The notes under the pieces are model-generated. The model had not been told where the DNA came from and searched no databases. It saw only the letters and a program-made list of their open reading frames with translations. Below are positions 41,076 through 58,288 of a stretch of DNA of 64,000 nt, piece after piece. A program made the position numbers and the translations under genes. The stretch is from Escherichia phage vB_EcoM_EP32a. Location of the stretch: sequence record OR544954. One strand, given 5' to 3'. Every line of letters begins with the position of its first letter. The first letter of the stretch is position 1.

Positions 41076-41810
41076 ATGGAGCTAATCTTTTTAAGCGGCA
41101 TCAAACGTAGTGGTAAAGACACCACTGCTGATTACATCAATTCAAACTTTAAATCCGTAAAATATCAATTGGCATATCCAATTAAAGACGCTCTAGCAAT
41201 AGCCTGGGGACGTAGGCATGCTGAAAATCCTGATGTATTCACAGAGTTGAAATACGAATACTTTGAAGGCATTGGATACGACCGTGAAACACCATTAAAT
41301 CTCAATAAGTTGGATGTTATTGAATTATTGGAAGAAGCGCTAATTTATTTGCAAAGCCAATATTTACCAATTAATAATGTTAAAGTATTATCATCGTTAG
41401 AAGGTGGATATTCGTATCTAGATATTAAACCATATGAAGCCCTGCGTGAAGCTATAAATAATATCAACGACACATGGTCAATCCGCCGTCTTATGCAAGC
41501 CCTCGGTACGGATGTTGTCGTTAATTTATTTGACCGTATGTATTGGGTTAAACTTTTTGCATTAAACTATATGGATTATATTGGAAGTGATTTCGATTAC
41601 TATGTCGTAACCGATACACGTCAAGTCCATGAAATGGAAACCGCTAGAGCGATGGGTGCTACAGTTATTCATGTGGTTCGCTCTGGTACGGAATCCACCG
41701 ATAAACATATTACAGAAGCTGGGTTGCCTATTGAAGAAGGCGATTTAGTTATTACAAACGACGGCTCTTTAGAAGAGCTTTATTCTAAAATTGAAACAAT
41801 CTTAAGGTAA
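41076..41810 (+). CDS. 1: deoxynucleoside monophosphate kinase gp1
   Basis: 244 aa ORF with P-loop GIKRSGKDT near the N-terminus. Confidence 0.9.
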   Translation: MELIFLSGIKRSGKDTTADYINSNFKSVKYQLAYPIKDALAIAWGRRHAENPDVFTELKYEYFEGIGYDRETPLNLNKLDVIELLEEALIYLQSQYLPINNVKVLSSLEGGYSYLDIKPYEALREAINNINDTWSIRRLMQALGTDVVVNLFDRMYWVKLFALNYMDYIGSDFDYYVVTDTRQVHEMETARAMGATVIHVVRSGTESTDKHITEAGLPIEEGDLVITNDGSLEELYSKIETILR

Positions 41811-41814
41811 TAAA

Positions 41815-42500
<686 letters not shown>

Positions 42501-42513
42501 TTTTTACAAAACA

Positions 42514-42577
42514 GTTTACATAAGGATGATGGTGTGTTACTATCATCCTATCAAATAAACAGCCTCAAGGAAATAAA
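42514..42577 (+). promoter_or_regulatory. early promoter / stem-loop cassette (PeSL-like) upstream of ipI
   Basis: GTTTACA -35, 17-18 nt spacer, TACTAT -10; 8-bp inverted repeat aggatgat/atcatcct spans the -10; A-rich leader. Confidence 0.65.
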
Positions 42578-42865
42578 ATGAAAACCTATAAAGAATTTAT
42601 ATCACCTGTTGCTAACGTTTCTACTCTGACCGAAGCATCCCTTACTTCTGAAGTTATTAAAACAAATAAAGGACGTGAGGGTAAACCAATGATTAGTCTG
42701 GTTGATGGTGAAGAAGTAAAAGGTACTGTTTACTTAGGGGATGGATGGTCTGCTAAGAAAGATGGCGCTACTATTGTTATCTCTCCGGCTGAAGAGACTG
42801 CACTGTTTAAAGCTAAGCATATTTCTGTAGCTCAGCTTAAAATTATTGCAAAAACTCTTCTGTAA
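42578..42865 (+). CDS. ipI: internal protein I-like (capsid-targeted internal protein)
   Basis: 95 aa ORF; N-terminal capsid targeting sequence MKTYKEFIS and an LTE motif that fits the gp21 cleavage pattern. Confidence 0.8.
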   Translation: MKTYKEFISPVANVSTLTEASLTSEVIKTNKGREGKPMISLVDGEEVKGTVYLGDGWSAKKDGATIVISPAEETALFKAKHISVAQLKIIAKTLL

Positions 42866-42868
42866 GTA

Positions 42869-42935
42869 GTTTACATGCTGATAGGACTATGTTATAGTAG
42901 TCCTATCAAATCAAATGAGTAAATGGAGAAATAAA
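42869..42935 (+). promoter_or_regulatory. PeSL-like early promoter cassette
   Basis: GTTTACA, spacer, TATAGT; perfect 10-bp inverted repeat gataggacta/tagtcctatc; leader caaatcaaatgagtaaatggagaaataaaATG. Confidence 0.65.
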
Positions 42936-43121
42936 ATGAAACGCGCTGAACTGATTCGTAATGTTGCTGTAGTAATTGCTTCAATGGCTTTTAGTTTTTC
43001 GATGTTTGTAGGATTCATTTGTGGACTACTGACAACAACTGAAAACTCTATCTCATTGGTAGTAGCATTTCTAATCGGCTTAATCGCTATCGTTATGGAT
43101 AAAATTGCAAAAGGTGAGTAA
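42936..43121 (+). CDS. small membrane protein (one or two TM helices)
   Basis: ORF track starts at 42915; Met at 42936 follows the conserved leader RBS; hydrophobic core AVVIASMAFSFSMFVGFICGLL. Confidence 0.6.
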   Translation: MKRAELIRNVAVVIASMAFSFSMFVGFICGLLTTTENSISLVVAFLIGLIAIVMDKIAKGE

Positions 43122-43122
43122 A

Positions 43123-43485
43123 ATGAAATATCACGTATATGCTGATTTTGAAGCAAATCCTTCTAAAGACCCGGATTGTCGTTTGATACGTAATCCGTTT
43201 GATTCAGCAGCTCAAGCATGGACTTGGATTAAATCTAAATCGCCTGGTTATATGTTCTTTGAAGTAGTCGATGACAATGGTACACTGCATCCAGAACCTA
43301 CAGAAACTATTAATTTCCTTCTGTTTGCTGGTTATGACTGTTATCCTCTTGGTGGTATTGACGACCTTGTTGCTACAGGAAAAACTGTTGAGGCTCTTCG
43401 CGAAATTTATAAAAACGCAGAAGAAAATTTTGACTGGTATCATATTGTCAGTGCACATACTTTTGAAGTGGTGGAACACTCATGA
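43123..43485 (+). CDS. hypothetical protein
   Basis: ORF track starts at 43105; Met at 43123 preceded by ggtgag RBS; 120 aa. Confidence 0.6.
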   Translation: MKYHVYADFEANPSKDPDCRLIRNPFDSAAQAWTWIKSKSPGYMFFEVVDDNGTLHPEPTETINFLLFAGYDCYPLGGIDDLVATGKTVEALREIYKNAEENFDWYHIVSAHTFEVVEHS

Positions 43486-43552
43486 TTCTTTACGCTAAAG
43501 TAAAATCTGTCGAGAACGGATATGAAAGCGACTAGTCGATGACTATGGTATT

Positions 43553-43753
43553 TTGACTAATTTTGAAGTTGAAAAGGTTTATATCGACCGTTCATCTTCG
43601 CAAGTTAAATTACTCTGTGAAGATGATAAATTTAACACAGTGAACTTTGATTTCTTTATTGAAACAGAAAAAGGCCCTCTTGAATATGATATTTTCAAGA
43701 ATCCTTTGAAATTACGTTGCATTGAATATAATTACATTAATATGGTACGGTGA
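43553..43753 (+). CDS. hypothetical ORF with non-ATG (TTG) start, possibly decayed
   Basis: 66 aa ORF, no clear RBS and no ATG start. Confidence 0.3.
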   Translation: MTNFEVEKVYIDRSSSQVKLLCEDDKFNTVNFDFFIETEKGPLEYDIFKNPLKLRCIEYNYINMVR

Positions 43754-43850
43754 TTAAATGAATATTCGTTTAGGCAGTACAATTCCTAAGGGCTACGTAA
43801 TTGATGTCACTACCTAGGAAAATGATGGTGACAACTATAAAACCAAAACA

Positions 43851-44273
43851 TTGTTTGAAGTGGAAGAGCATGAGCTCCAACAGTTTAAATATCTCTTGAA
43901 GAAATTTAAGAGTCGTCATTCTAGCACTAAAGCCGAACGTTATTGTGGTAATACACCATTCAGTGATTGCTCGCTTTTAATCTATGAATACTTGGTTGAA
44001 GGGCTGTTCTCAGACCAGCTTTATCCAGAATTTATTAAAAAGGTCTTTGATATTGAAGTCGACCTCGGTAATAAATCTGAAGAAGACGAAGCGCGTGTAT
44101 TTGACCTGTTCCATGAGAATGGATATTTAGTATCAGAAGGTCTCATTGATATTCTTGGCCATGCTTCTGAATACTATGATTACGATTTCTTGCGTGTAGT
44201 TGAACGTGTCGAATTTGCTTATATTGAAGAAGAAATCGTTTTGCCAACCGTTAAAATGGTTGATTTGCTTTAA
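43851..44273 (+). CDS. hypothetical acidic protein, TTG start or frameshifted
   Basis: 140 aa ORF with no in-frame ATG near the 5' end; a short out-of-frame ATG ORF (from 43822) runs into it. Confidence 0.35.
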   Translation: MFEVEEHELQQFKYLLKKFKSRHSSTKAERYCGNTPFSDCSLLIYEYLVEGLFSDQLYPEFIKKVFDIEVDLGNKSEEDEARVFDLFHENGYLVSEGLIDILGHASEYYDYDFLRVVERVEFAYIEEEIVLPTVKMVDLL

Positions 44274-44352
44274 GAATTATGTGTTATTATTAATTCATAC
44301 CCTCTATTACCAAAGGTGCTCTAAAGTGCCTTTCATAATAGAAAGTTATTTA

Positions 44353-44426
44353 GGCCCTGTAGCTCAATGGTTAGCAGCAGTCCCCTCATAAGGGAAAGGT
44401 TACCAGTTCGAATCTGGTCTGGGTCA
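44353..44426 (+). tRNA. tRNA with anticodon CAU (Met or Ile2-type)
   Basis: Hand-folded cloverleaf: acceptor ggccctg pairs with ctgggtc (one U-U), D-loop with GG, anticodon loop cuCAUaa, T-arm accag-TTCGAAT-ctggt; D-stem only 3 bp. Confidence 0.6.
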
Positions 44427-44432
44427 TATATT

Positions 44433-44509
<77 letters not shown>

Positions 44510-44527
44510 ACTTTAAGTGAGGAAAAT

Positions 44528-44923
44528 ATGAAAGGCAATGTTTATCTGGTAGTTCATGATTTAACGTTTTATTTTAACGAACGTGAAACAGTTATTTCCG
44601 ACCGGTTGATTAATTCGTTATATCAACACGCTGATTACGTTTATTTCCAAAATGAATTTGGCCATTGGAAGTTCATTAAAAACCGTTCTGGGTTAACTAG
44701 TTTTGAATACTTTGACCGTAAAGACCTTTTAAACGAAATCCCATTGCAACATCGGTTCCAGAAACGCGAATCATTATATTATTGCCGTCATATATCAAAT
44801 GCTGAATGTGTTGATGAAGTAATTAATCTATGGCGTAGACGTAGAGAAAACAAATTGATGATATGTCAAAATAAGAAGCCGGGTCGCTACCGGCAAGTCG
44901 TCGGACTGATGTTCCCTGAGTAA
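44528..44923 (+). CDS. hypothetical basic protein embedded in the tRNA cluster
   Basis: ORF track starts at 44480 inside tRNA-Arg; RBS gaggaaa plus Met at 44528 (MKGNVYLVVHDL...), 131 aa; no GIY-YIG or HNH motif seen. Confidence 0.55.
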   Translation: MKGNVYLVVHDLTFYFNERETVISDRLINSLYQHADYVYFQNEFGHWKFIKNRSGLTSFEYFDRKDLLNEIPLQHRFQKRESLYYCRHISNAECVDEVINLWRRRRENKLMICQNKKPGRYRQVVGLMFPE

Positions 44924-45042
44924 GGACTGGTCTTAATAAATCTTTACGATTTGTTAATATCCCCTTACATCACAGCAGAAACGGCGCACCGAATTATCGA
45001 TTCGAGGAAATATCTTTGCCGTAAGCCGAGTAGCGTTTTTGA

Positions 45043-45134
45043 CGGAACGTTCGGATATGGTCGAGATATGGCCTTTTAAAAATATTGAGTAGCGTCAACT
45101 GCTTAATAACCGGGTTCGAATCCCGGCGTTTCGT
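45043..45134 (+). ncRNA. tRNA-like element (canonical T-arm and 7-bp acceptor stem, non-canonical interior)
   Basis: ccggg-TTCGAAT-cccgg T-arm; cggaacg pairs 7/7 with cgtttcg; D and anticodon arms could not be folded canonically by eye. Possible type II tRNA, pseudo-tRNA or stable RNA. Confidence 0.35.
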
Positions 45135-45186
45135 ACAAACACTTTGCCTTAGTAGGTGGAACCCCGACAAGGTTGCCGCAAGGCTT

Positions 45187-45214
45187 AGCCCCTTCCGAAA
45201 GGTCGGGGCTTTTT
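45187..45214 (+). terminator. intrinsic terminator with GAAA tetraloop
   Basis: agcccc-ttCC-GAAA-GGtc-ggggct followed by TTTTT, directly upstream of the next RBS. Confidence 0.6.
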
Positions 45215-45226
45215 GAGGAAAATGTT

Positions 45227-45529
45227 ATGAGTCTTTACACTGAACTGAATAAAAAATCTGAAGAATCTGCTGAAACTATTTTTAAAAACGTGCAAAAGCG
45301 TATTTTAGAAAAGATGTATAACGCTGCAGCTAAAGGTGAAAAATCTTGCCGGTTTCCGATTAGGTGTTCTTCCGATTTATGCGCAAATACTATTGAATGG
45401 TTGGAAAGTGAAGGTCTTACGGTAGAGAAAAACCCGGCGACTTCTATTGGCAGTGAATCATATATTAGTATTTCTTGGGATAAATCAACAAAATTAAAAA
45501 TAATGATGTACAAGCACCAAGGATGGTGA
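45227..45529 (+). CDS. hypothetical protein
   Basis: ORF track starts at 45173; RBS gaggaaaa plus Met at 45227 (MSLYTELNKK...), about 100 aa. Confidence 0.6.
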   Translation: MSLYTELNKKSEESAETIFKNVQKRILEKMYNAAAKGEKSCRFPIRCSSDLCANTIEWLESEGLTVEKNPATSIGSESYISISWDKSTKLKIMMYKHQGW

Positions 45530-45565
45530 TACTATAGACTTATCAACTACAAAGGAGTAAACAAA
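45507..45565 (+). promoter_or_regulatory. early promoter cassette, near-duplicate of 10055-10114
   Basis: TGTACA -35, 17-nt spacer, TACTAT -10, then tagacttatcaactacaaaggagtaaacaaaATG. Confidence 0.6.
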
Positions 45566-45730
45566 ATGACTACTTTAATTATTTGGTTCGATGAAAATGA
45601 AGAAACATACTGTGTGAATATTGGTGAAAGTCCAATGCCTGAATTTGAATCCTCAGATAAAAACTCTGTTGTATCTTGGGCTGAAGGTTATAAAGCCGCT
45701 AAAGGTGACGTTGAAATAATTTACATCTAA
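45566..45730 (+). CDS. hypothetical small protein (54 aa), absent from the ORF track
   Basis: ATG at 45566 after the conserved leader and RBS aaggag; MTTLIIWFDENEETYCVNIG... Confidence 0.5.
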   Translation: MTTLIIWFDENEETYCVNIGESPMPEFESSDKNSVVSWAEGYKAAKGDVEIIYI

Positions 45731-45776
45731 GTAAGTTTATGTTATAGTAATCACATCAAATAAAGAGGAAAACAAA
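45720..45776 (+). promoter_or_regulatory. early promoter (TTTACA, 17 nt, TATAGT)
   Basis: Sigma70-type -35/-10 with 17-nt spacing, then RBS agagga and ATG at 45777. Confidence 0.55.
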
Positions 45777-46004
45777 ATGGCTAAAGTTAGTATTGATGTC
45801 GTTGATTATGAATACACCGAAGAAGTTATTCGCAACCGACACCCTGAAGTTCGTATCGATTCAGTCCAAGATTCCAAGTTCTGGACAACTGAGCTTAATC
45901 TGAGTGGTCCTTATGAAGCTGTTAAGAAGTTCATGGTTGAAGAATACTGCGAAGGCATGCACCCTGAAGATGCAGAATTTTATGTCAACTTGATTAAAAA
46001 ATAA
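45777..46004 (+). CDS. hypothetical protein
   Basis: 75 aa ORF with RBS agaggaaaa. Confidence 0.6.
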   Translation: MAKVSIDVVDYEYTEEVIRNRHPEVRIDSVQDSKFWTTELNLSGPYEAVKKFMVEEYCEGMHPEDAEFYVNLIKK

Positions 46005-46074
46005 TTTACAAACTCTCGAGAGCAGAGTATAATGCTCTCGTTGGATAATAAACCACCAATTGAAAGGTAATAAT
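46005..46074 (+). promoter_or_regulatory. early promoter / stem-loop cassette
   Basis: TTTACA, 17 nt, TATAAT; inverted repeat ctcgagagc/gctctcg around the -10. Confidence 0.6.
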
Positions 46075-46668
46075 ATGAACACACTGAAGAAACTTGTTGA
46101 ATTCATCCGCACTAAACTGGGTACTGCTATGGCTAAAAATCTGACTGTCGAAGAACAGTATAACGCAGCTGCAGATAAGTTGATTACCCAAATCAAAGAA
46201 CTAAAAACGGCTTCTGTTAAATCTATTAATGAAGAAAAACGTATTCGCGAACTTGTTAATGAAAAGAATAAGCAAGCCGCTTCTAAGGAACGTGAAATTC
46301 GTAAGCTCCTGGCTGAAGGACAAGATGTTACTATGCATGCTAAGCTTGGTCTTCTGTATCGTCGAACTGCCGAACAACTTAATACAAAAGCTGACGGGTA
46401 TGCCGCTATGCGAATTGAAATTGCTCGTAAGGTGGTTGAACTTGATGATGCTCGTCAGAATCTGGCAATCAAACTCGAATACATTCGTGAAACTCGAGCA
46501 GCCAATGCCCTTGGTATCTCTACGGCTGATGATGTAATTGAAATCGCTGCACTGACTAAGGTTGATATCGAAGACACTCTGACTCGTGTTGAAACGTTCA
46601 ATGGCACTCCAGCCGGTGTCGAAACCACTTCTGCTGATGTACAAGAATATATTAACTCTTTGAAATAA
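46075..46668 (+). CDS. coiled-coil protein, possibly PspA/IM30-like
   Basis: ORF track starts at 46060; Met at 46075 ([14 protein letters not shown]...); about 197 aa, predicted long helices; weak by-eye resemblance to PspA. Confidence 0.5.
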
Positions 46669-46717
46669 AATAATACGGAGGACTCCGGTCCTCCTTTTGG
46701 ATAATAAAGGAGTTAAC

Positions 46718-47320
46718 ATGCGAAACCAAAATAATGATATTGACTCAATGTTCGAAGAGTTCCGAAATAAGGTAAATCCACCTACGTCTTTAGTTGATTC
46801 ATTACGATATGTTGCAACTGGACGTAAATGGTACTGGTCGTCTTCTTATGAGACTACTGAGAAAACGGCCAGCCATAGCAGAAAATCTTTATTAGCCCCA
46901 GGTATTATGATTCATGATATCGGAGCTATTGCTAAACTAGTTGCAGACCATGATATTAGATTCACTGATTTCGTTGCTCCTACGTGGTCTGTTTGTTGTT
47001 TAAACACTGAATGGGAATATATCAGCGAACGCTCTAAAGATTATTATGGTTTTAGAGACAAGCTTTTAAGGTCTAACATGTTTTATATTGATACAGAAGT
47101 TCTGGTCAATAATAAAAAATACTACTTCACTTTAATCATCGATTCTGAAACTATGTATGAAGGCAAGCCTTTGCTTAAGAGAGTTGATGCTTTAAGTGCT
47201 ATTGATGCGCTTTATGAAACTATGGTTGTTAGTCCTAATTTCACTAACAATTTAATCCTTGAGCAATTTATTATGGAATGTAGAGAATATGTCAAAGCCA
47301 ACCCTATACATGCCAAGTAA
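46718..47320 (+). CDS. hypothetical protein
   Basis: ORF track starts at 46697; RBS aaggag plus Met at 46718 (same taaaggagttaacATG context as gene 26). Confidence 0.6.
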   Translation: MRNQNNDIDSMFEEFRNKVNPPTSLVDSLRYVATGRKWYWSSSYETTEKTASHSRKSLLAPGIMIHDIGAIAKLVADHDIRFTDFVAPTWSVCCLNTEWEYISERSKDYYGFRDKLLRSNMFYIDTEVLVNNKKYYFTLIIDSETMYEGKPLLKRVDALSAIDALYETMVVSPNFTNNLILEQFIMECREYVKANPIHAK

Positions 47321-47684
47321 GCCCTGGGCGTATGAATACAAGCGTAAATTAATCCCAAATGAAGTACTATTTGGCCCTATTTTAGCTTTAGCATTTTTAA
47401 TCTTTATGATTATAGGAGCTGTTTTAGATTCTAGTGAAGTTATATCGTCTGATGCAGCATTTTCATTAATGTTCGTCGCACCACTTATTGTACCGTTTTT
47501 ATTAATGCCTATTAATTGGGTAGGATATTGGCACCAAGGCCGTCATCACAGAGCCCGATTAAGAGAATGGAAAGTTCAGTGCGCAAAAGCCCAAGCTCAG
47601 TATGATGAAGCTGTTAAAAAGTATGAATATGAAGAAGCTATGGAATTCGTTAAGGAAATAAGATGCAAAAGCCTCAACTCTTAA
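47289..47684 (+). CDS. small membrane protein, C-terminal EFVKEIRCK family member
   Basis: Start ambiguous (Met at 47289 or 47310); two predicted TM helices; C-terminal motif shared with 47663, 50440 and 51347 ORFs. Confidence 0.55.
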   Translation: MSKPTLYMPSKPWAYEYKRKLIPNEVLFGPILALAFLIFMIIGAVLDSSEVISSDAAFSLMFVAPLIVPFLLMPINWVGYWHQGRHHRARLREWKVQCAKAQAQYDEAVKKYEYEEAMEFVKEIRCKSLNS

Positions 47685-48022
47685 CCGTATGGCCTTCTCT
47701 TGGTGAGAACATTCTAATTTTTATTATGAGTATTGGCATGGGATTTGCCTTTGGATTAGTTGGATTTCTTATTGACGGCGTTGTGTTAGGATTTATAGGG
47801 AACACTGGTGGATTCACAGACCAATGGCAGGACTTACGGTACACCCAAGCCTTTGCATCCATCGCATCATTTTGTACTGTAGTCTATTTTTACTACGATT
47901 TTATAAACCACAACAAGAAAAATAAAAAGGTTTACGCTTCTCAAATGATTAGTTATAATGAACTCCTAGCTAGACGTGAAAATGAAACAATCGAAAACTT
48001 TATTAAGGAATGTAGAAAATGA
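47663..48022 (+). CDS. small membrane protein, C-terminal ENFIKECRK family member
   Basis: 119 aa, RBS aagga; TM helices; C-terminus ...ETIENFIKECRK. Confidence 0.6.
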   Translation: MQKPQLLTVWPSLGENILIFIMSIGMGFAFGLVGFLIDGVVLGFIGNTGGFTDQWQDLRYTQAFASIASFCTVVYFYYDFINHNKKNKKVYASQMISYNELLARRENETIENFIKECRK

Positions 48023-48324
48023 GTAAGATTATTGAAATTAAAGTACCAGAGTTTAATGATGCCAAATCCGCTTCAGATGCAATTTATAAACTTCTGAATC
48101 AAGCTGAACGTATCGAAGAAGAAGCAACAAAGATCGCAGACCAATATGCCGTATCATTTTCTGTAGGTGATTATGGTAGCGGTCGTACTTATTATCCTAA
48201 GGGTGAAATCGTATCCCAGTGGATGAAAGATGAAATTGAAAATAATGGCGGCGATGTTAAGCGTGAAGGTAATGGATACGTTATTACTGAAGGTGCTTGG
48301 GTTTCGTCTTCTGCGTTGTGCTAA
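48019..48324 (+). CDS. hypothetical protein, tandem paralog 1 (C-terminal GAWVSSSALC)
   Basis: 101 aa; shares a GxGxTYxxPG-like middle motif and the C-terminal GWV[SA]SSxxC motif with the next two ORFs. Confidence 0.6.
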   Translation: MSKIIEIKVPEFNDAKSASDAIYKLLNQAERIEEEATKIADQYAVSFSVGDYGSGRTYYPKGEIVSQWMKDEIENNGGDVKREGNGYVITEGAWVSSSALC

Positions 48325-48333
48325 GGAATCATT

Positions 48334-48606
48334 ATGTCTAAAGAACAAACCGAACTGGCTGAAGCTGTAGCAAAAATCTATGCAGCTATTGAGGCTGCCA
48401 AAGAAATTGCTGATAAACAAAACACAACATTCAACTTGTACCCAGCTTATGGTATGGGTGGAACCTATCATTCACCCGGACATCTTAAAGCCGATCTTGA
48501 ACGTTGTACAAAAAACGGCTATGCTGAATGGGCTGACGTTTACCAATACGACTACAACCTGAGCCTCGAAACTGGTGGTTGGGTCGCATCTTCTCACACT
48601 TGCTAA
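48334..48606 (+). CDS. hypothetical protein, tandem paralog 2 (C-terminal GGWVASSHTC)
   Basis: 90 aa; RBS ctaaggaa; same family. Confidence 0.6.
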   Translation: MSKEQTELAEAVAKIYAAIEAAKEIADKQNTTFNLYPAYGMGGTYHSPGHLKADLERCTKNGYAEWADVYQYDYNLSLETGGWVASSHTC

Positions 48607-48615
48607 GGAAACAAT

Positions 48616-48813
48616 ATGTCTCGTGAATTAGATTGTGCTGTACGTACGGCAGTAGCTGCTCTGGAAAACCTGTTCCAAATTGCAACAGAAGAACGCGAAG
48701 AAGTTACATTATGGATTGAAGATAACGCAGGTCTGAATCTCCAGGACGCGATCTCATTATCCCACAATAGTATCACTGTTCAAGGCTGGGTATCATCTAG
48801 TTATTCTTGCTAA
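48616..48813 (+). CDS. hypothetical protein, tandem paralog 3 (C-terminal QGWVSSSYSC)
   Basis: 65 aa; RBS ctaaggaa; same family, shortest member. Confidence 0.55.
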   Translation: MSRELDCAVRTAVAALENLFQIATEEREEVTLWIEDNAGLNLQDAISLSHNSITVQGWVSSSYSC

Positions 48814-48817
48814 AACA

Positions 48818-48875
48818 GTTTACAACAAGATAGGGCTATGTTATAGTAGTCCTATCAAAACAAATGGAGTCCACA
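48818..48875 (+). promoter_or_regulatory. PeSL-like early promoter cassette
   Basis: GTTTACA, spacer, TATAGT; inverted repeat gatagggcta/tagtcctatc (one mismatch); leader caaaacaaatggag. Confidence 0.65.
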
Positions 48876-49115
48876 ATGATTTATTACGAAAGTATCGGAA
48901 CCAAAGTGGTTGGCAAAACCATTACTCGTGAAAAGTTTGCAAAGATATTCGATATGCGTTATAAAAAATCTGAACACAAAGGCATCCGATTCGAAGATGC
49001 GCACTGTACAATTTGCCCTTATAATGAAGACATAAACGGTACAATCGTTCCATTGGTAGAAGCTTCACATGATGACCTCTGGGATGAATATAATATCGCA
49101 TGTCGTGAAATTTAA
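48876..49115 (+). CDS. hypothetical protein
   Basis: ORF track starts at 48864; Met at 48876 after the conserved leader; about 79 aa. Confidence 0.55.
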   Translation: MIYYESIGTKVVGKTITREKFAKIFDMRYKKSEHKGIRFEDAHCTICPYNEDINGTIVPLVEASHDDLWDEYNIACREI

Positions 49116-49143
49116 GTTAATGAATTAATCCGAGGAAAATATT

Positions 49144-50100
49144 ATGATGTTAGTTATTGGTTCTCGTGCACTTCACTATCACGGTCTTATTGATTCTAGC
49201 GCTATCAAAAATAGTGATTGGGACTTTATTGCGGACCAAGGTTCTTGGAATGCATTCAAAAATCAAATGATGGGTGTATATGTCCACCAAGATAACCCTG
49301 ATGTCCAAGTTTTCAAATGCTTCCATAATGGTCGCGAAACTCATTTTGAAGCATATATTGTTCCGGCAATCACTAATGTCCGTGAATTAGTCGGTGAACT
49401 CACTCCTGAAGATTTCACATCTTCTTATGACCTTTTAAAATACGCCAAGAAAAATTTGACTAAAGACCGTTTGAACGGGTTTTACTGGGCAACTCCTGAG
49501 ATATGTCTTGCAATTAAGATGTCTCATCGTTTCAAGAAAAATAATCCATTCTTTTTAAAGACTATGAACCATATTCAGTATCTTCGTGGTAAAGGTGTTA
49601 CACTGAACGATGAACTTACTGAAATTATGCTGAAACGCCAAAAAGAAACTTTGAACTATGCTCACCCTGTTCTTGACACTTCTAAAAGTGCGTTCTTTAA
49701 AGATGACATCTATACATATGACCATGATACTATTCACGAAGCCATTGCACTAACAGACCGTCCGGCTTATATGTTTTACATGAAAGATGGTTCTGAAGTC
49801 ATGACCTCACGCGAGAAGTTCGAATCATTACCGGAAATGGTCAAATTGGCCGGTGTATATGAAGAATCATGTGTACTAGCATTAGAACGTTCTCAGATTC
49901 CTAACGACTTTAAAATCCATCCACGTGATAGTTTTATGATGGCCCTTGAAAAGGTCTGTACATCAATCACATCAGGATGGTTCCGTGAGTTCGCTTGGGA
50001 AAATTATAGCAAAGTAGTAAGTATGTACCAAAGCTTAGGACACGACGATTACGTCAAGCGTTTCAAACAAAACTTTCATATGGTAAAACCTTTCAAATAA
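49144..50100 (+). CDS. hypothetical 318 aa protein, possible nucleotidyltransferase-like N-terminus
   Basis: RBS gaggaaaa; N-terminal IGSRALHYHGL...SDWDF loosely resembles the GS-x(n)-DxD pattern of Pol-beta-superfamily nucleotidyltransferases (spacing longer than canonical). Confidence 0.5.
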   Translation: MMLVIGSRALHYHGLIDSSAIKNSDWDFIADQGSWNAFKNQMMGVYVHQDNPDVQVFKCFHNGRETHFEAYIVPAITNVRELVGELTPEDFTSSYDLLKYAKKNLTKDRLNGFYWATPEICLAIKMSHRFKKNNPFFLKTMNHIQYLRGKGVTLNDELTEIMLKRQKETLNYAHPVLDTSKSAFFKDDIYTYDHDTIHEAIALTDRPAYMFYMKDGSEVMTSREKFESLPEMVKLAGVYEESCVLALERSQIPNDFKIHPRDSFMMALEKVCTSITSGWFREFAWENYSKVVSMYQSLGHDDYVKRFKQNFHMVKPFK

Positions 50101-50112
50101 TTTCACAAAACA

Positions 50113-50180
50113 GTTTACAAGGTCTGTAGTTGTTGATACTATAGACCTATCAAAACAAATGAGTGAATGGAGATATAAAA
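50113..50180 (+). promoter_or_regulatory. PeSL-like early promoter cassette
   Basis: GTTTACA, spacer, TACTAT; inverted repeat ggtctgtag/ctatagacc; leader caaaacaaatgagtgaatggagatataaaaATG. Confidence 0.65.
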
Positions 50181-50381
50181 ATGACTACTTTGAATAAACG
50201 TTTCGGTAAAGCTAAACCTGGTTGTGCAGCAGAACGTCGTTATGTTTTCGCTCAGTTAGAAGATGTAGAGTATCAGATTAATCAAGTTCACATTACTGGT
50301 ATCGAGCCTATGTGTGGCCTTGAAGCTCTTCGTGAAGTTCGTGATGGGTATCGTCGTGACATCGAAGAAATGTCAAAATAA
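50181..50381 (+). CDS. hypothetical small protein
   Basis: ORF track starts at 50163; Met at 50181 after the conserved leader; 66 aa. Confidence 0.55.
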   Translation: MTTLNKRFGKAKPGCAAERRYVFAQLEDVEYQINQVHITGIEPMCGLEALREVRDGYRRDIEEMSK

Positions 50382-50382
50382 G

Positions 50383-50439
50383 TGTACAAACTGATAGGAC
50401 TATGTTATAGTAGTCCTATTAAAACATGAGGAGAATATT
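50383..50439 (+). promoter_or_regulatory. PeSL-like early promoter cassette
   Basis: GTGTACA, spacer, TATAGT; 9-bp inverted repeat ataggacta/tagtcctat as in the 42869 copy; RBS gaggag. Confidence 0.65.
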
Positions 50440-50745
50440 ATGAAATTAGGCGAAACCAACCGAATTGGTCTTTTAACAATATTTGTATCACTTTTTTACG
50501 CAGCTCTTTCTGTTGCAGTATTACAAAAGGCTTACAGTATGGATGGTGTTCCTGGTTGTATATTTTTATCACCATTTTTGCTATTCGTTGGAGCTTTGTT
50601 ATTATATGCCACGTCTGGTTTCGACAATAATGTCTGGGTCAATTATAAACGTAAATTGTCTGAAGAAGAACACGCAGAAGCTCGTAAAAAAGCTATTGAA
50701 TCTACCAATCTAGAAAATTTCATTAAAGAATGTCGAGGAAAATAA
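50440..50745 (+). CDS. small membrane protein, C-terminal ENFIKECRGK family member
   Basis: 101 aa; two TM helices; C-terminus ...STNLENFIKECRGK. Confidence 0.6.
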   Translation: MKLGETNRIGLLTIFVSLFYAALSVAVLQKAYSMDGVPGCIFLSPFLLFVGALLLYATSGFDNNVWVNYKRKLSEEEHAEARKKAIESTNLENFIKECRGK

Positions 50746-50789
50746 TATGAATAGTTCTAAAGTGTTTAATAGTCAAGCTCGTGCAGTAG

Positions 50790-51347
50790 GTGGTTTTGCT
50801 CACGCGATTAAAAATGACCAGATTAAAAACGAGCCTATGTTCTTCAACTGTAGTATTTGATTCACGAGTCCATATGCTGATGCCTGGTTGGTATCCTGCT
50901 ATTCCAGGTTATCACCATGACGATGTACCACGCCCGGATATTCCAGTTGGTCAACACTTTATTACTGCAGGACAACCTGACTATGACAATCCTCGCTATT
51001 TGTCTGAACACATTCTTGGTCTTGTTAACGCTGATGTGTGTCCTACTCATTTTGCAACAGGAACTGCAGAGTTCAGTCAGATTCCTGATGGCGAACTTAT
51101 CTATCGCCAGTGGCACAAAGAAGTCCTCGAAAAAATCGAAAAAGGTGAACTAGAGAAATGGGAAGCTCCGGACCGTACTCTTCTTCAGTTTGATTGGCAA
51201 ACATGGCACACTGGTTCTCGTGCAATTAGTAATGGATGGCGTTGGTTCGGACGTGTATCTCGTAATACAGACCGAGTTAAAAAGATTACCAATGAAATTC
51301 GTGTCAATGCTCAAGTTTATCTGGAATTCCCTATGGAAGGCTGGTAA
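50790..51347 (+). CDS. hypothetical protein, possibly frameshifted
   Basis: 185 aa ORF whose 5' end overlaps, in another frame, a 37-codon ORF (50747-50860) that starts 1 nt after the upstream stop; no RBS for internal Mets. Confidence 0.4.
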   Translation: MVLLTRLKMTRLKTSLCSSTVVFDSRVHMLMPGWYPAIPGYHHDDVPRPDIPVGQHFITAGQPDYDNPRYLSEHILGLVNADVCPTHFATGTAEFSQIPDGELIYRQWHKEVLEKIEKGELEKWEAPDRTLLQFDWQTWHTGSRAISNGWRWFGRVSRNTDRVKKITNEIRVNAQVYLEFPMEGW

Positions 51348-51838
51348 TGATTAACAAAACATATTGGTCTAATATTGACGACGGCAATGAAGGTATTTCA
51401 TACTATTCAGTAGATTGGACAGGATGTCCATCCTACTTAGTGAAACGTATTTGCCAAGAATTTAAAATCGACCAGCCAGCAGGTATTATCGTGAACAGAT
51501 ACATTAATGGATATCAACCTATCGATGAAGTAATACGAACAACTCAAGCTGAGCTTGAAAAGTTTTTCAATAAGTGCCAATGGATAACAGGATGGATTAT
51601 ATTTGTACCGTCTATATGGTTTTTCAGTACTAAGGTGAGTTCTTTCGGTTTTGTTGATATTATTGCTATCTTATTAGCATCTACTATCGTAAGTATTATT
51701 GGCGGTATAATTGGTGGAGGTACTGTAGGCATCATTATTAATCTTATTAAAAGTAGTTTACAAGAACATAAAGACAAGATAAAAGCCAAGAATAATGAAG
51801 TTGAACGTTTTATTACCGAATGCAGGAATTTGAGATGA
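51347..51838 (+). CDS. membrane protein, C-terminal ERFITECRNLR family member
   Basis: 163 aa; TM helices with GGIIGGGTVGIII segment; ATGA overlap with upstream stop; C-terminal motif as family. Confidence 0.6.
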   Translation: MINKTYWSNIDDGNEGISYYSVDWTGCPSYLVKRICQEFKIDQPAGIIVNRYINGYQPIDEVIRTTQAELEKFFNKCQWITGWIIFVPSIWFFSTKVSSFGFVDIIAILLASTIVSIIGGIIGGGTVGIIINLIKSSLQEHKDKIKAKNNEVERFITECRNLR

Positions 51839-52071
51839 GTATAGCAATTTACATTAAATCAGAATCATGTGATAGTTATCTGTACACATACGATAAAGAT
51901 GTGTCAGAAGAAAAAATCAAAGACGACCTTAATACGGATCTTGATATGTTCTGTCCTATTGCAGATTACAAACTTGCGGTCTCTAATAGTGAAAGTCCAT
52001 CTAAAGAAACGCGCATTGAAGAATTTATGTCCGAATTAATGGCCAAATCATGGGACCGAGATGATGAGTAA
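51835..52071 (+). CDS. hypothetical acidic protein
   Basis: ORF track starts at 51820; Met at 51835 overlaps the upstream stop (ATGA). Confidence 0.5.
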   Translation: MSIAIYIKSESCDSYLYTYDKDVSEEKIKDDLNTDLDMFCPIADYKLAVSNSESPSKETRIEEFMSELMAKSWDRDDE

Positions 52072-52519
52072 GAAAAATAAAGTGAAAGAACTATCAGCCG
52101 GTATTATTTTCCTTACCGAAGATAAAGAATTATTCATGGGGCGTGTAACTGGTTCTCGTCCTAAAGGTTCTTTAGCTCATCGCTGGGATATTCCTAAAGG
52201 ACGTGTCGAGCCCGGTGAATCTCCTATTGAAGCCGCTATTCGCGAATGCGAAGAAGAAACTGGGTTTACACAATATGACCCTGCCTTCCTGAAAGACCTA
52301 GGTGAACATCATTACTCAGACAATAAGAATATTCATCTGTTCCTATATACCATCCCTGTAGAGCACGAGCAATTCAGAAACAGTGCTTGTAATTCCTATC
52401 ATACATTCCCAGACGGACGACAGATTCCTGAATTTGATGCGTTCGCTTTAATTAAACCTTCTCAATGGGAATATGTAATGGGCAAATCATTATATAAGGT
52501 GCTCACTACCCTCCTATAA
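52064..52519 (+). CDS. nudE: Nudix hydrolase NudE (e.1)
   Basis: Nudix box GRVEPGESPIEAAIRECEEETGF; immediately upstream of lysozyme e as in T4. Confidence 0.9.
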   Translation: MSKKNKVKELSAGIIFLTEDKELFMGRVTGSRPKGSLAHRWDIPKGRVEPGESPIEAAIRECEEETGFTQYDPAFLKDLGEHHYSDNKNIHLFLYTIPVEHEQFRNSACNSYHTFPDGRQIPEFDAFALIKPSQWEYVMGKSLYKVLTTLL

Positions 52520-52525
52520 GTAATA

Positions 52526-52553
52526 AATACCTCCTATAAACGTGGGAGGTATT
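52526..52553 (+). promoter_or_regulatory. RBS-sequestering hairpin with late-promoter-like TATAAA in the loop, upstream of e
   Basis: 9-bp perfect inverted repeat aatacctcc / ggaggtatt; the 3' arm contains the Shine-Dalgarno ggagg and ends 1 nt before the e ATG. Confidence 0.65.
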
Positions 52554-53042
52554 ATGAATATATTTGAAATGCTTCGTAATGACGAAGGTCTTAGACTGAC
52601 TTTATACAAAGACACTGAAGGCTTTTGGACGATTGGCATAGGCCATTTAGTAACAAAGAACCCATCTTTAGCCGTAGCTAAAGCTGAACTTGACAGAATG
52701 ATCGGACGTAAATGCAACGGTACAATTACCCTTGATGAGGCTGAAAAGCTATTTAATGAAGACGTTGATAAAGCTGTTCGCGGAATCTTGGGTAATGCTA
52801 AACTTAAACCGGTATATGATTCTTTAGATGCAGTTCGTCGATGTGCATTGGTCAATATGGTCTTCCAAATGGGTGTAACAGGCGTCGCCGGTTTTACTAA
52901 TTCTCTTCGTATGCTTCAACAGAAACGTTGGGACGAGGCGGCAGTAAATCTAGCCCAATCTAAATGGTACCGTCAGACACCTAATCGCGCGAAACGCGTA
53001 ATCTCAACATTTAAAACAGGAACTTGGAAAGCGTATATATGA
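52554..53042 (+). CDS. e: endolysin (T4 lysozyme, gene e)
   Basis: ORF track starts at 52542; Met at 52554 gives [32 protein letters not shown]..., near-identical to T4 lysozyme including the catalytic E11/D20 region. Confidence 0.95.
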
Positions 53043-53320
53043 AAACATATAGTGAATTTTTATCAGAATCTATTCTTAACGAAGCTACTGACACATTTGC
53101 AACTAAGCTAGGTGCAGCTTTGGTTGAAGCTGAAAGTCTATTAGCACGTATTTCTGAACTTGCTAGTAAGATAGATACTCGCAAATTTGAACGTACCAGC
53201 GATATCGCTAAGCTTGAAGCCTTGTTGCGTATGTGTGATAAACCGGAAGAAATCGCTAAGAACGGCTCGCTGATGAAACAACGTCTTGAAAAATATATTT
53301 CAGGCGCTTCAGAAAAATAG
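53039..53320 (+). CDS. internal protein (IPII/IPIII-like)
   Basis: ORF track starts at 53024; Met at 53039 overlaps the e stop (ATGA); N-terminal capsid targeting sequence [10 protein letters not shown] followed by ILNE, which fits a gp21 cleavage site. Confidence 0.7.
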
Positions 53321-53321
53321 T

Positions 53322-53378
53322 GTTTACTTCCTCCAAGGGTTTTGATACTATACATTCATCAACTACTTGGAGGAAATT
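53322..53378 (+). promoter_or_regulatory. early promoter with RBS-sequestering hairpin upstream of denV
   Basis: GTTTAC, 18-nt spacer, TACTAT; 10-bp perfect inverted repeat ttcctccaag / cttggaggaa; the 3' arm contains the denV Shine-Dalgarno. Confidence 0.65.
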
Positions 53379-53792
53379 ATGACTCGTATCAATTTAACAC
53401 TTGTTTCTGAACTGACCGACCAACATCTTATGGCTGAGTATCGTGAATTACCACGCGTATTTGGTGCAGTCCGTAAACATGTTCAAAACGGTAAACGTGT
53501 AAAGGATTTTAAAATCTCTCCAACATTTATCTTAGGCACAGGTCACGTAACATTCTTTTACGACAAACTCGAATTTTTACGTTTACGTCAAATCGAGCTA
53601 ATCGCTGAATGCTTGAAACGTGGTTTCAAAATCAAGGACACGACTGTTCAGGATATTTCCGACATCCCTGCCGAATTTCGTAATAATTACGTCCCGTCCG
53701 AAGCGTCCATTGCGATAAGTCAAGCACGCTTAGATGAAAAAATTGCTCAACGTCCGACTTGGTACAAATACTATGGTAAATCAATTTACTAA
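53379..53792 (+). CDS. denV: endonuclease V (pyrimidine dimer DNA glycosylase)
   Basis: ORF track starts at 53367; Met at 53379 gives [35 protein letters not shown]..., near-identical to T4 DenV. Confidence 0.95.
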
Positions 53793-53799
53793 GGAAAAA

Positions 53800-54060
53800 A
53801 TGAAAATGTATCAAGAATTTATCATTGAAGCAGATGCCAAAGACCCTAAATTTAAAGTTAAAGCTTTCATTGGTGATGCGGAAGACTTTGGCTCATTAAA
53901 ACGTAATGGGTATTCTTTCTTAGGTGGTGATGGTAAAGAAATCAACACCTATGCAAAACGTAGTGAAATTGCTTATGTTGTAGTAAGTCCTAAAGTAGAT
54001 GTTGACGATATTGGATACGATTTTAACAACTTCGGAATTATTTCTGGCGGTAAAGCTTAA
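53800..54060 (+). CDS. internal protein (IP-like)
   Basis: ORF track starts at 53734; RBS aagga plus Met at 53800; capsid targeting sequence MKMYQEFIIE; 86 aa. Confidence 0.65.
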   Translation: MKMYQEFIIEADAKDPKFKVKAFIGDAEDFGSLKRNGYSFLGGDGKEINTYAKRSEIAYVVVSPKVDVDDIGYDFNNFGIISGGKA

Positions 54061-54063
54061 ATT

Positions 54064-54123
54064 GTTTACGCTTAAGTATTAATATGGTATAATTACTCTA
54101 TCAAAACAAACAAGGAAACAAAA
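54064..54123 (+). promoter_or_regulatory. early promoter cassette (GTTTAC, 18 nt, TATAAT)
   Basis: Consensus-like -35/-10 followed by the conserved leader ctatcaaaacaaacaaggaaacaaaaATG. Confidence 0.65.
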
Positions 54124-54201
54124 ATGAAAACATATAAAGAATTTATCGCCGATCCAACCTGTAATAAGGTCGAGCCCAAGTGCGGTAATGGGTTTACATA
54201 G
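54124..54201 (+). pseudogene. truncated internal-protein gene remnant (25 codons)
   Basis: ORF starts with the capsid targeting sequence MKTYKEFIA but stops after 25 codons (MKTYKEFIADPTCNKVEPKCGNGFT*). Confidence 0.5.
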
Positions 54202-54257
54202 CGAGTCGAAGGACCTAACATGTGCCACGGAATGGCCCAAACCTTAAGAGAAATAAT

Positions 54258-54428
54258 ATGAGAACATTTTTAACTGGACCTTATCTATCCCTGATGAATG
54301 CTTTTACACACCATTCTGATGCTAGAGTAGAAGAAATTTGTAAGAACGGTTATGTCCCGCCATTTGAAGAAGTACTCAAGCAGTACTGTACACTTCGTTT
54401 AGACGGCGGCCGACAATCCGGTAAATAA
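54258..54428 (+). CDS. hypothetical small protein
   Basis: ORF track starts at 54222; Met at 54258 (MRTFLTGPYLSL...) preceded by an A-rich RBS-like region. Confidence 0.45.
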   Translation: MRTFLTGPYLSLMNAFTHHSDARVEEICKNGYVPPFEEVLKQYCTLRLDGGRQSGK

Positions 54429-54434
54429 ATTGCT

Positions 54435-54797
54435 GTGACTAACTTTGCTGCTAATTGGCTGTATGATGGTGGAACAGTTATTGTTCTTTCTAATACTTCA
54501 GCTTATGCTAAAATTTCTGCTGGCAACATTAAAAAAGAATTTTCTCGTTATTCTAGCGATGATATTCGATTCCGTTTATTTACTGATTCTGTTCGTAGTT
54601 TTATTGGCAATGAAGGTTCTAAATTCCGTGGATTAACGCTTTCTCGTATTCTGTATATAATTGACGAGCCTATTAAAGCTCCTGATATGGATAAGATTTA
54701 CAATGTACATATTAAAACAGTCCAACACTGTTGCAAAAGCAAATATTGCATCGGCGGTAATGCTCGTCCTCAATTTTTTGTGATTGGAATGCAATGA
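54435..54797 (+). CDS. hypothetical protein, GTG start
   Basis: 120 aa ORF; only GTG available as start, 7 nt after the upstream stop. Confidence 0.4.
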   Translation: MTNFAANWLYDGGTVIVLSNTSAYAKISAGNIKKEFSRYSSDDIRFRLFTDSVRSFIGNEGSKFRGLTLSRILYIIDEPIKAPDMDKIYNVHIKTVQHCCKSKYCIGGNARPQFFVIGMQ

Positions 54798-55102
54798 TGA
54801 CCACTATTGAAGTTTTTGAGTATTGTTATAACAGTCCAGTATGCAATAAAAGGGCCCTTGTAGAAAATTACGAGATTTACCATTTTAAACCTAAACGATA
54901 TCGTTTGACTAAAGGTCCGTTCGCAGGGCAGCAGGTTCTTTGTACTGCTCCTAATGCACGACTGATGACTAGTATTCCACATTTCAAAATGGAATTTATT
55001 GATGGGCCATTTAAGGGATTAATCACTCAAAGTTTAATGGCGTTTAATTCCGACCCATTTTTGATTAAAGAAAAATCTTGGATAAATTTATTTTCTAATT
55101 GA
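54794..55102 (+). CDS. hypothetical protein
   Basis: 102 aa; ATGATGA overlap with the upstream stop. Confidence 0.5.
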   Translation: MMTTIEVFEYCYNSPVCNKRALVENYEIYHFKPKRYRLTKGPFAGQQVLCTAPNARLMTSIPHFKMEFIDGPFKGLITQSLMAFNSDPFLIKEKSWINLFSN

Positions 55103-55108
55103 GGTTAT

Positions 55109-55471
55109 ATGAAAGCATATCAAATTCTTGAAGGTGCACATAAAGGCACTATTTATTTTGAAGACGGTACTCAAGCCAGGATTATTGTCTCTAAGACTTT
55201 TAAAGAAGACGCTATTGTAGACCCGGAAATTTTCTACGGTTTGAATGCCCGTGAAATTGAAATTGAACATCAACCTAAAGTTAAAATTGAAGGTGGACAA
55301 CATCTGAACGTTAACGTTCTGCGTCGTGAAACTCTAGAAGATGCAGTTAAGCATCCAGAAAAATATCCGCAGCTGACCATCCGTGTATCTGGTTATGCAG
55401 TTCGCTTTAACTCTCTGACTCCGGAACAGCAGCGTGACGTTATCGCTCGCACCTTTACTGAGAGTCTATAA
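55109..55471 (+). CDS. autonomous glycyl radical cofactor (GrcA/YfiD-like; T4 Y06I-type)
   Basis: C-terminal glycyl-radical domain [62 protein letters not shown], essentially the E. coli GrcA / PflB C-terminus. Confidence 0.85.
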
Positions 55472-55695
55472 TGGCTAAATTGATTATAGAAGGGTCTGAA
55501 GATGTTTTAAAATGTTTTGCCGCCTGGTTTAGTTGCTCAGGCGAGCAATCATTCACTGAAGCATTTAGAATGGGTGATATTACTGGAAACTATCCGACAA
55601 CTGATATCACTGTACGTGGATATGGTATTAATGAGCCTATCCAATTGGTCGAATATGACCTTGCCACCGATGAGGAAATTCCTTATGTCGATTGA
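55471..55695 (+). CDS. hypothetical protein
   Basis: 74 aa; ATG overlaps the grcA-like stop. Confidence 0.5.
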   Translation: MAKLIIEGSEDVLKCFAAWFSCSGEQSFTEAFRMGDITGNYPTTDITVRGYGINEPIQLVEYDLATDEEIPYVD

Positions 55696-55817
55696 AGACA
55701 TCAAAGGCTACAAGCCGCATACCGATGATAAAATCAGTAAAGTGAACGCTATTAAAGATGCAGAAGTTCGTGTCGTGCAGTATTTCGACCTGAGGAAAAA
55801 TACTAATGGCTAGAGTA

Positions 55818-55874
55818 GTTTACTTCTCCTCTAGTTGTGTTACTATAGACCTGTCAACTAGAGGAGAAATCAAA
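55818..55874 (+). promoter_or_regulatory. early promoter with 14-bp RBS-sequestering hairpin upstream of regB
   Basis: GTTTAC, spacer, TACTAT; perfect 14-bp inverted repeat ttctcctctagttg / caactagaggagaa; the 3' arm contains the SD gaggag. Confidence 0.65.
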
Positions 55875-56333: not shown

Positions 56334-56341
56334 AGGTAAAC

Positions 56342-58279: not shown

Positions 58280-58288
58280 GGGACTCTT

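Follow-up and report, generated by a model that had tools for sequence, protein, structure and literature searches.

Which internal proteins (IPs) does a T4-like phage carry in its two IP loci, and what has become of an IP gene of which a 25-codon reading frame is left? The question is raised by the window, by which we mean the whole stretch of 64,000 nucleotides analyzed here, from Escherichia phage vB_EcoM_EP32a (sequence record OR544954). An earlier note on this DNA had drawn attention to open reading frames (ORFs) at 42578, 53039, 53800, and 54124 that begin with the capsid targeting sequence (CTS) of T4. A megablast query with positions 42000-55000 matched 908 phage records, the best matches being the Mosigvirus phages APCEc01, SCS57, SA79RD, mar005P1, and JS09 (96-98% identity, full length), by which the phage is identified as an RB69-like Mosigvirus of the T4 family. 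We consider it very probable that the region holds the two IP loci of this phage with three intact CTS-bearing genes, and that a fourth was lost by deletion and, with it, protection of the Ip3 type. The IP interpretation is broadly right and describes published biology, and the deletion is private to this genome.

A CTS of 10 residues suffices for incorporation into the prohead core, Tyr4 and Phe7 being important in targeting (PMC9026906). It is removed by the protease gp21 (PMC9026906; PMC3012670), and T4 IPs are injected along with the DNA. A six-frame scan of the window with the regular expression M-K-x-[Y/F]-x-[E/D]-F-[I/L/V] returned exactly four ORFs, at the positions given above, all of which open with the CTS pattern M-K-[T/M]-Y-x-E-F-[I/L]. 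The DNA motif ATGAAAAYNTATMARGAATTTAT, with up to three mismatches, occurs four times in the window, every time at one of these ORF starts, against 0.04 occurrences expected from shuffles. The four T4-type starts are thus borne out, but the number of genes is not: the earlier note had counted four IP genes plus a remnant, whereas the scan gives three intact CTS-bearing ORFs plus the remnant, and no further CTS-bearing ORF in any of the six frames.

Cleavage by gp21 had also been proposed, and the predicted sites support it. T4 IPI, IPII, and IPIII each have a single [L/I/V]-x-E motif, which is their known gp21 site (ITE/A at residue 19, IAE/A at 10, and IAE/A at 10, respectively). All three intact ORFs of the window have [L/I]-x-E motifs, at the positions of these single T4 sites: LTE/A at 19 (42578), IIE/A at 10 (53800), and LSE/S at 10 or LNE/A at 15 (53039). 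By tblastn, the phage has genes both for gp21, the prohead protease, and for the scaffolding core (gp22, gp67, gp68). A family search placed all three ORFs in families whose annotation is that of internal head or virion proteins (Pfam IPI_T4, phrog_4363, phrog_3499, and phrog_2667), in keeping with the original assignment. By gene order against T4 and its relatives, the genes occupy the known IP loci, 57B-trna.4 and e-denV-vs.8.

The gene in the first locus (42578-42865, + strand) encodes 95 residues. The product matches Pfam PF11634 (IPI_T4) at E=2.6e-49 (165.5 bits, cut-off 25), residues 20-95 aligning with model positions 1-76 of 76. It also matches phrog_4363 and, over residues 20-95, the solved structure of IPI* (PDB 2JUB, E=7e-41). 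Residues 1-19 would be the propeptide, with a predicted gp21 cut at LTE/AS leaving a mature IPI* of 76 residues, 70 of which are identical to those of T4 (changes T21S, A29T, I47V, A84V, H86Q, and N93T). The gene lies between 57B and trna.4, as in T4. The IPs had been described as divergent copies, but with six of 76 mature residues differing from T4, this one is by sequence an IPI orthologue and not a divergent copy. RB69, the type Mosigvirus, has arabinosyl- rather than glucosyl-hydroxymethylcytosine DNA, which is cut by GmrSD and protected by RB69's own IPI (PMC6024577). By analogy, the window IPI would inhibit a GmrSD-type type IV restriction enzyme, as shown for T4 IPI and reported for that of RB69.

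Upstream of ipI, 42515-42553 (+ strand) holds an early-promoter-like site (42515-42543, TTTACA-17-TACTAT with TG) and an embedded 8-bp inverted repeat (AGGATGAT/ATCATCCT). The arrangement resembles a promoter-early stem-loop (PeSL), and the SA79RD record annotates an early promoter and a terminator that overlap it. Just 3' of ipI there is a second promoter-like site (42870-42898, + strand, TTTACA-17-TATAGT with TG) and then another inverted repeat (TAGGACTA/TAGTCCTA), which gives ipI cassette-like flanks on both sides. The count of promoter-like sites in the region is not above shuffled expectation, and the ipI inverted repeats were read by eye. A third site included in the comparison with PeSLs, 54065-54093, belongs to the other locus; inverted repeats were found at the first two. 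The T4 late-promoter consensus, TATAAATA, occurs on the + strand near the IP genes only at 41453-41460, inside gene 1 and upstream of 57A, 57B, and ipI.

The two intact genes of the second locus belong to uncharacterized families. One (53039-53320, + strand, 93 residues) lies between e and denV and matches phrog_3499, 'internal head protein' (E=2e-46). Its homologues are few and closely related (five clusters, 89-99% identical). Its ATG overlaps the TGA stop of e (ATGA, 53039-53042), suggesting translational coupling, and it has no promoter-like site of its own. The AlphaFold model of the product (predicted local distance difference test score, pLDDT, 72.6) is all-helical, with three helices, and found no Foldseek match in the PDB. 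The other gene (53800-54060, + strand, 86 residues), directly 3' of denV, matches phrog_2667, also named 'internal head protein' (E=1.5e-21). It starts 8 nt past denV behind AAGGA, has no promoter-like site of its own, and its predicted cut is IIE/AD at residue 10. Its homologues are again few and closely related (12 clusters), and its structure model is unusable (pLDDT 48). Neither protein has relatives in Pfam or the PDB; sequence and profile searches of the latter gave chance-level matches only. In vB_EQ1 (PQ516281; L003 841-1521) the stop codon of denV is CAA instead of TAA, and denV is therefore annotated as an in-frame fusion to the next IP gene (...YGKSIYQGKMKMYQEFIIE...).

The fourth CTS belongs to the remnant, an ORF of 25 codons at 54124-54201 (+ strand). 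It had been said to keep the promoter, leader, and CTS of an IP gene before terminating, and all of these are found: a T4-early-type promoter-like site at 54065-54093 (+ strand, TTTACG-17-TATAAT, 10/12 matches, with a TG-extended -10), the Shine-Dalgarno sequence AAGGA, and MKTYKEFIA. The promoter-like site, identical to that upstream of ipIII in vB_EQ1 and Av-05, is now directed at the vs.8 operon. The ORF opens with 29 nt (54124-54152) that are the ipIII start of the relatives; what follows is an out-of-frame reading of native downstream non-coding DNA. In a block alignment to the Av-05 locus (L008), window 50849-54152 corresponds to L008 971-4273 and window 54153-55771 to L008 5251-6870. 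The blocks abut at 54152/54153, with no unexplained base. Compared with Av-05, the best fit, 977 bp are missing, namely the ipIII body, a 109-codon CTS-bearing IP-like gene (phrog_3966), and part of a downstream element. Relative to vB_EQ1 the loss amounts to 617 bp and consists of the body of an ipIII orthologue of 192 codons (phrog_5341, E=1.7e-117); relative to SA79RD it amounts to 688 bp, which hold a 104-codon CTS-bearing gene and an IpII gene. The replacement of the IP body by unrelated DNA, as initially suggested, therefore did not occur, since the sequence from 54153 on is the native downstream sequence of the relatives; the remnant is, on this alignment, a clean deletion of an ipIII-type cassette. 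A 65-nt query across the junction is covered to 80% or more in none of 50,697 phage records, and the lesion is thus private to the window genome.

The mature Ip3 domain (~180 residues, phrog_5341) is absent from the remnant, in which 29 nt of the gene are left. With the body deleted, the product cannot be Ip3, and we do not file the remnant as such. The deletion also changed codon 10 from Glu to Asp (MKTYKEFIAD), and the remnant has no [LIV]-x-E site. In T4 IPIII, Asp10 blocks processing but leaves capsid targeting intact (Mullaney and Black, 1996, as cited in PMC9026906). As a speculation, the remnant peptide, if made, may be packaged uncleaved. Other short IP remnants were not seen in 36 T4-like loci around denV from IMG/VR or in the GenBank relatives, roughly 40 loci in all. 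Two further ideas were discarded: a frameshifted longer gene, as no IP body follows in any frame, and recombination between CTS repeats as the mechanism of deletion, as the right breakpoint is not in a CTS.

Could the remnant be something other than the trace of a deletion? If it were an assembly or sequencing artefact, the real phage would have an intact ipIII-type cassette. The region indeed contains about four copies of the promoter-leader-CTS segment (83-92% identity over 33-47 nt), a kind of repeat that can mislead short-read assemblers, and as little as about 275 bp downstream there is an unusual nonsense codon. However, the right breakpoint is outside any repeat, and both flanks run colinear with those of three relatives (96-98%) and leave no base over. 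Nor is the ORF a longer gene broken by a sequencing error, which the earlier note had named as its refutation: the 617-977 bp that are absent are no mere base error. We therefore regard an artefact as extremely improbable. The other possibility is that the remnant has been kept because it is useful, its strong early promoter driving the vs.8-vs.7-vs.6 operon directly and its 25-residue peptide, with Y4 and F7 intact and cleavage blocked by D10, being itself packaged. The uniqueness of the junction among the 50,697 records gives no sign of selection for such a remnant, the first gene 3' of it is itself broken by a stop codon, and the tail of the peptide is out-of-frame non-coding DNA. Against these stand the intact promoter-like site and Shine-Dalgarno sequence and the targeting without processing that Asp10 permits in T4 IPIII (in the account given in PMC9026906), and we judge a useful remnant improbable, if less so than an artefact.

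The deletion reading thus retained, how would the loci work, and what would the loss mean? By inference from T4, the targeting peptide would dock each protein in the prohead's scaffolding core of gp22, gp21 would cut after the Glu of L/I-x-E, and the mature proteins would remain in the head with the DNA, to be injected together with it and to neutralize first-line defenses in the host cell. Each of Ip1, Ip2, and Ip3 inhibits a different GmrSD-family type IV enzyme, with no cross-protection, and every gene of both Ip loci is proposed to target GmrSD variants (PMC12373910). T4 needs Ip3 against the GmrSD system of E. coli ECOR17, and evolved T4 readily loses ipIII by deletion at the cost of this host (PMC9391042). 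Deletion of an Av-05-type arrangement would have removed the ipIII body, the phrog_3966 gene, and the 5' half of a structured RNA element, leaving the promoter, the ribosome-binding site, and the first nine codons of ipIII. With the ipIII body gone, the phage would be without Ip3-type protection, and from this natural loss one would predict that its host range is narrower among strains that carry ECOR17-type GmrSD. The window also adds one natural allele set to a well-described anti-restriction arsenal. The anti-defense role attributed to these proteins is published for Ip1, Ip2, and Ip3 (PMC12373910), but for the 53039 and 53800 families it is an extension. By analogy, these two proteins most likely inhibit other GmrSD-family variants, and phrog_3499 and phrog_2667 are reasonable candidates for the next inhibitors of such variants.

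It may be argued instead that the 53039 and 53800 proteins are packaged without having an anti-defense role, acting in DNA condensation, as ejection helpers, or as inhibitors of targets other than type IV enzymes. They have no known target and no PDB or Pfam matches, and conservation within the 53039 family is 89-99% in phages that share only 77% identity in denV, which points to purifying rather than diversifying selection. Yet all three of the T4 IPs tested are specific GmrSD inhibitors, a role extended by the authors to the whole loci (PMC12373910), and the 53039 and 53800 genes come and go among close relatives in an accessory-like manner. Also, the mature proteins are neutral or acidic, which argues against a simple DNA counter-ion role. 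On balance, a packaged role outside defense seems unlikely, although of the alternatives discussed here it has the best claim.

Several observations weigh against our account as a whole. The pI (isoelectric point) of the mature proteins, about 5.2 (53800) and 6.3-8.1 (53039), is unlike that of the basic T4 IPII and IPIII. The 53039 protein has two more internal L/I-x-E motifs, which makes its mature form uncertain, and structure prediction gave no functional lead for either protein. The database name 'internal head protein' of phrog_3499 and phrog_2667 rests on the N-terminal motif, and no virion proteomics or injection data were found for the window phage or for these two families. The late-promoter consensus TATAAATA is absent from the + strand over 41461-58865, so that late expression of the e-denV IP genes is not explained by the consensus. 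Finally, there is no microhomology or repeat at the junction, unlike in laboratory deletions of T4, and the exact parent may differ from Av-05.

How unusual is the arrangement of the second locus? The order in T4 is e-ipIII-ipII-denV-vs.8, with ipIII and ipII between e and denV as the earlier note had it, and that in the window is e-IP-denV-IP-remnant-vs.8. The order thus differs from T4, as had been claimed, but it is not out of the ordinary, since IP genes flank denV variously in many relatives. In the sample of roughly 40 loci, CTS-bearing ORFs were found upstream of denV, downstream, or both. BLASTP clustering of their mature parts gave about 17 sequence families, the two uncharacterized families of the window having 10 and 9 members. 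Polymorphism of the IP loci has been known since Repoila et al. (1994), as related in PMC12373910 and PMC4122927.

The deletion also touches a second feature. The 66 bp 3' of the junction belong to a GC-rich element, and we lean slightly toward the view that 54153-54238 (+ strand) is the 3' half of an undescribed conserved structured RNA of about 100-150 nt, present from T4 to Vequintavirus. This half would comprise a core of three helices (P1-P2-P3) and a terminal hairpin, the 5' domain (Pa, H1) having been deleted. The covariance model R1 matches 54079-54210 (E=1e-12), a match that is homologous only from 54153 on, and the element is present in a single copy in the window. With Pa and H1 taken by the deletion, the window copy is almost certainly dead. 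Full-length copies are found in vB_EQ1 (L003 2186-2287) and in T4 (L005 3845-3944, - strand, corresponding to about 64844-64943 of NC_000866). In T4 the element is annotated as the N-terminus of vs.8 (MRDSRQPVIRSSPSAVMG...). However, this frame is shifted in vB_EQ1 and stopped in another relative, so that the element is not coding. An 80-nt segment of the 5' domain plus core is 97.5% identical between T4 and vB_EQ1, whereas genes e, denV, and vs.8 are 76-87% identical.

The distribution of the element is broad among phages. The carriers include many Tequatrovirus and Mosigvirus, other Straboviridae, and Vequintavirus. The covariance model was built solely from type-B copies and recovers T4-type copies at E values of about 1e-11 to 1e-15 and those of Vequintavirus at about 1e-7. 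In IMG/VR, 30 contigs contain the 17-mer CCTGTAATAAGGTCGAG, each of them exactly once. Of 28 metagenome contigs with a related 20-base gapped pattern (GTAATAAGGTCGAG, a gap of 7-10 nt, then CGGTAA), 26 are matched by the covariance model; a stricter gapped pattern that includes CCTGTAATAAGGTCGAG gave no match among 185,579 genomes of bacteria and archaea. The Vequintavirus copies occupy an unannotated intergenic stretch of about 250 nt and have a sigma-70-like promoter of their own (TTGACA-17-TATACT), some 0.5 kb upstream of the genes for tRNA-Arg and tRNA-Tyr; another contig has the element within a tRNA cluster. Three T4-like IMG/VR contigs (L092, L094, and L100) have the element followed by a CTS-bearing IP gene and not by vs.8, so that its link is to the IP slot and not strictly to vs.8. 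A search of the literature found no published description of the element, no counterpart was found in E. coli, and Rfam 15 gave no relevant match in the window, vB_EQ1, NHEP10, or the Vequintavirus-like element loci. It matches neither tRNA nor tmRNA (transfer-messenger RNA), and both identities were rejected.

The alignments suggest an outer helix, Pa, around a variable hairpin, followed by a three-way core, in the order Pa, H1, Pa', P1, P2 (ACCU-GUAAUA-AGGU), P3 (CGAGC..GYGCG), UAA, and P1'. Pa is seen as GGGAA/UUCCC, GGGAG/CUCCC, AAAGG/CCUUU, AAAGCU/AGCUUU, AAAGA/UCUUU, GGGG/CCCC, and GGAAC/GUUCC, one P1 pair as A-U, U-A, U-G, and C-G, and the H1 stems are entirely different between groups. 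In 15 type-B sequences, 96% of the cells are paired, against 12-53% in slid controls, and the covariation is 0.130 against a shuffled mean of 0.063. In two sets aligned to the model, whose pair counts lean towards the structure because they were fitted to it, the figures are 92.8% paired (slid controls 23-49%) with covariation of 0.191 (shuffled mean 0.079) for non-seed sequences, and 96.1% (21-51%) with 0.210 (0.084) for metagenome matches. None of 500 shuffles reached the observed covariation in any of the three sets, and in both model-aligned sets each of the five Pa pairs varies at both of its positions. The invariance of P2 follows from how the searches were constructed, and a degenerate scan with a variable P2 stem gave only chance matches beyond the 30 known contigs. 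The single-sequence fold of the element is no better than that of shuffles (z = 0.3). Helices read by eye in the 3' tail (ACAU/AUGU) found no support among variants and were dropped. If the structure is real, it would be a new phage non-coding RNA, mis-annotated as coding in T4 and open to study in the best-understood phage system.

The gene beyond the RNA element is also broken. The vs.8 homologue (54258-54797, + strand; phrog_1488, P-loop-like) has an in-frame TAA at 54429-54431, in place of a Ser codon of the Walker-A-like GGRQSGKS that is TCA in T4, SA79RD, and vB_EQ1. The two halves match phrog_1488 positions 1-54 and 59-177, and the intact homologue weakly resembles a terminase ATPase domain. 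Either the gene is genuinely knocked out or the TAA is an error in the sequence. Three neighboring features, the IP cassette, the RNA element, and vs.8, are thus inactivated in the window genome. They may form, or may have decayed as, one accessory module, or their joint loss may be a coincidence, with a sequencing error possibly accounting for vs.8.

The surrounding genes, mapped on the + strand from annotated relatives and T4, are as follows. Gene 1 (41076-41810) is followed by 57A, 57B (42045-42500), and then ipI. Downstream of ipI come trna.4 to trna.2, tRNA-Met and tRNA-Arg (44353-44509), and the e.x genes. The second locus is preceded by nudE (52061-52519) and e (lysozyme, 52554-53042), includes denV (53379-53792), and is followed, 3' of the vs.8 homologue, by vs.7 and vs.6. 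Head genes are also found in the window: gene 21 (prohead protease, 12878-13510, - strand) is 88% identical to T4 gp21 over residues 1-209, and gene 22 (scaffolding core protein, 12026-12835, - strand) is 77% identical to its T4 counterpart. Genes 67, 68, 20, 23, and 24 lie near these two, gp68 and gp67 being 81% and 60% identical to the T4 proteins (all by tblastn). The gp21 encoded here would be the enzyme expected to take off the targeting peptides. Besides the IP cassette, several small accessory segments of SA79RD are absent from the window, at about 45215, 46000, 50850, and 55771-55811. One of them is SA79RD_146 (phrog_2280, 154 codons), which has a CTS-like start, MKSYAEFLTEQ, and lies near the tRNAs; its position may be a third IP locus in relatives.

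The features described here can be compared with known systems. Small phage RNAs whose function is not known, rnaC and rnaD (species 1 and 2) of T4, lie like the RNA element near tRNA genes in some phages. However, they have no sequence similarity to it and another architecture, and in T4-like phages the element lies at the junction of denV/IP and vs.8, not in the tRNA cluster. T4 IPI (IPI*, 2JUB, PF11634) and the window product are alike end to end, with the same 19-residue propeptide ending in x-T-E/A, and the genes share the 57B-trna.4 locus and the putative flanking promoter/stem-loops. They differ by six substitutions, and the window phage is a Mosigvirus, whose IPI is predicted to act on GmrSD variants.

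Polymorphism of the IP loci by PeSL shuffling (Repoila et al., 1994; Arbiol et al., 2010; Comeau et al., 2014, PMC4122927) has alternative IP genes sharing promoter, leader, and CTS in the same slots, and ipI of the window lies between promoter-like sites with inverted repeats, which may be elements of this kind. The deletion does not follow this pattern, its breakpoints being inside the CTS and the downstream RNA element and not at two PeSLs. T4 Ip3 inhibits the GmrS1/GmrSD2 system of ECOR17. In its promoter, leader, and first 29 nt the remnant is identical to the ipIII orthologues of vB_EQ1 and Av-05, which closely resemble T4 IPIII in sequence. However, ipIII is 3' of denV in this lineage and between e and denV in T4. 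The closest parallel to the deletion is laboratory-evolved T4 (Srikant et al., 2022, PMC9391042), in which ipIII was likewise lost by a deletion of ~1 kb of accessory genome. Those deletions occurred at microhomologies of 6-10 bp and compensated for a genome amplification, whereas the window junction has no microhomology. The expected consequence is nevertheless the same in evolved T4 and in the window phage, namely, loss of the hosts that carry a matching GmrSD.

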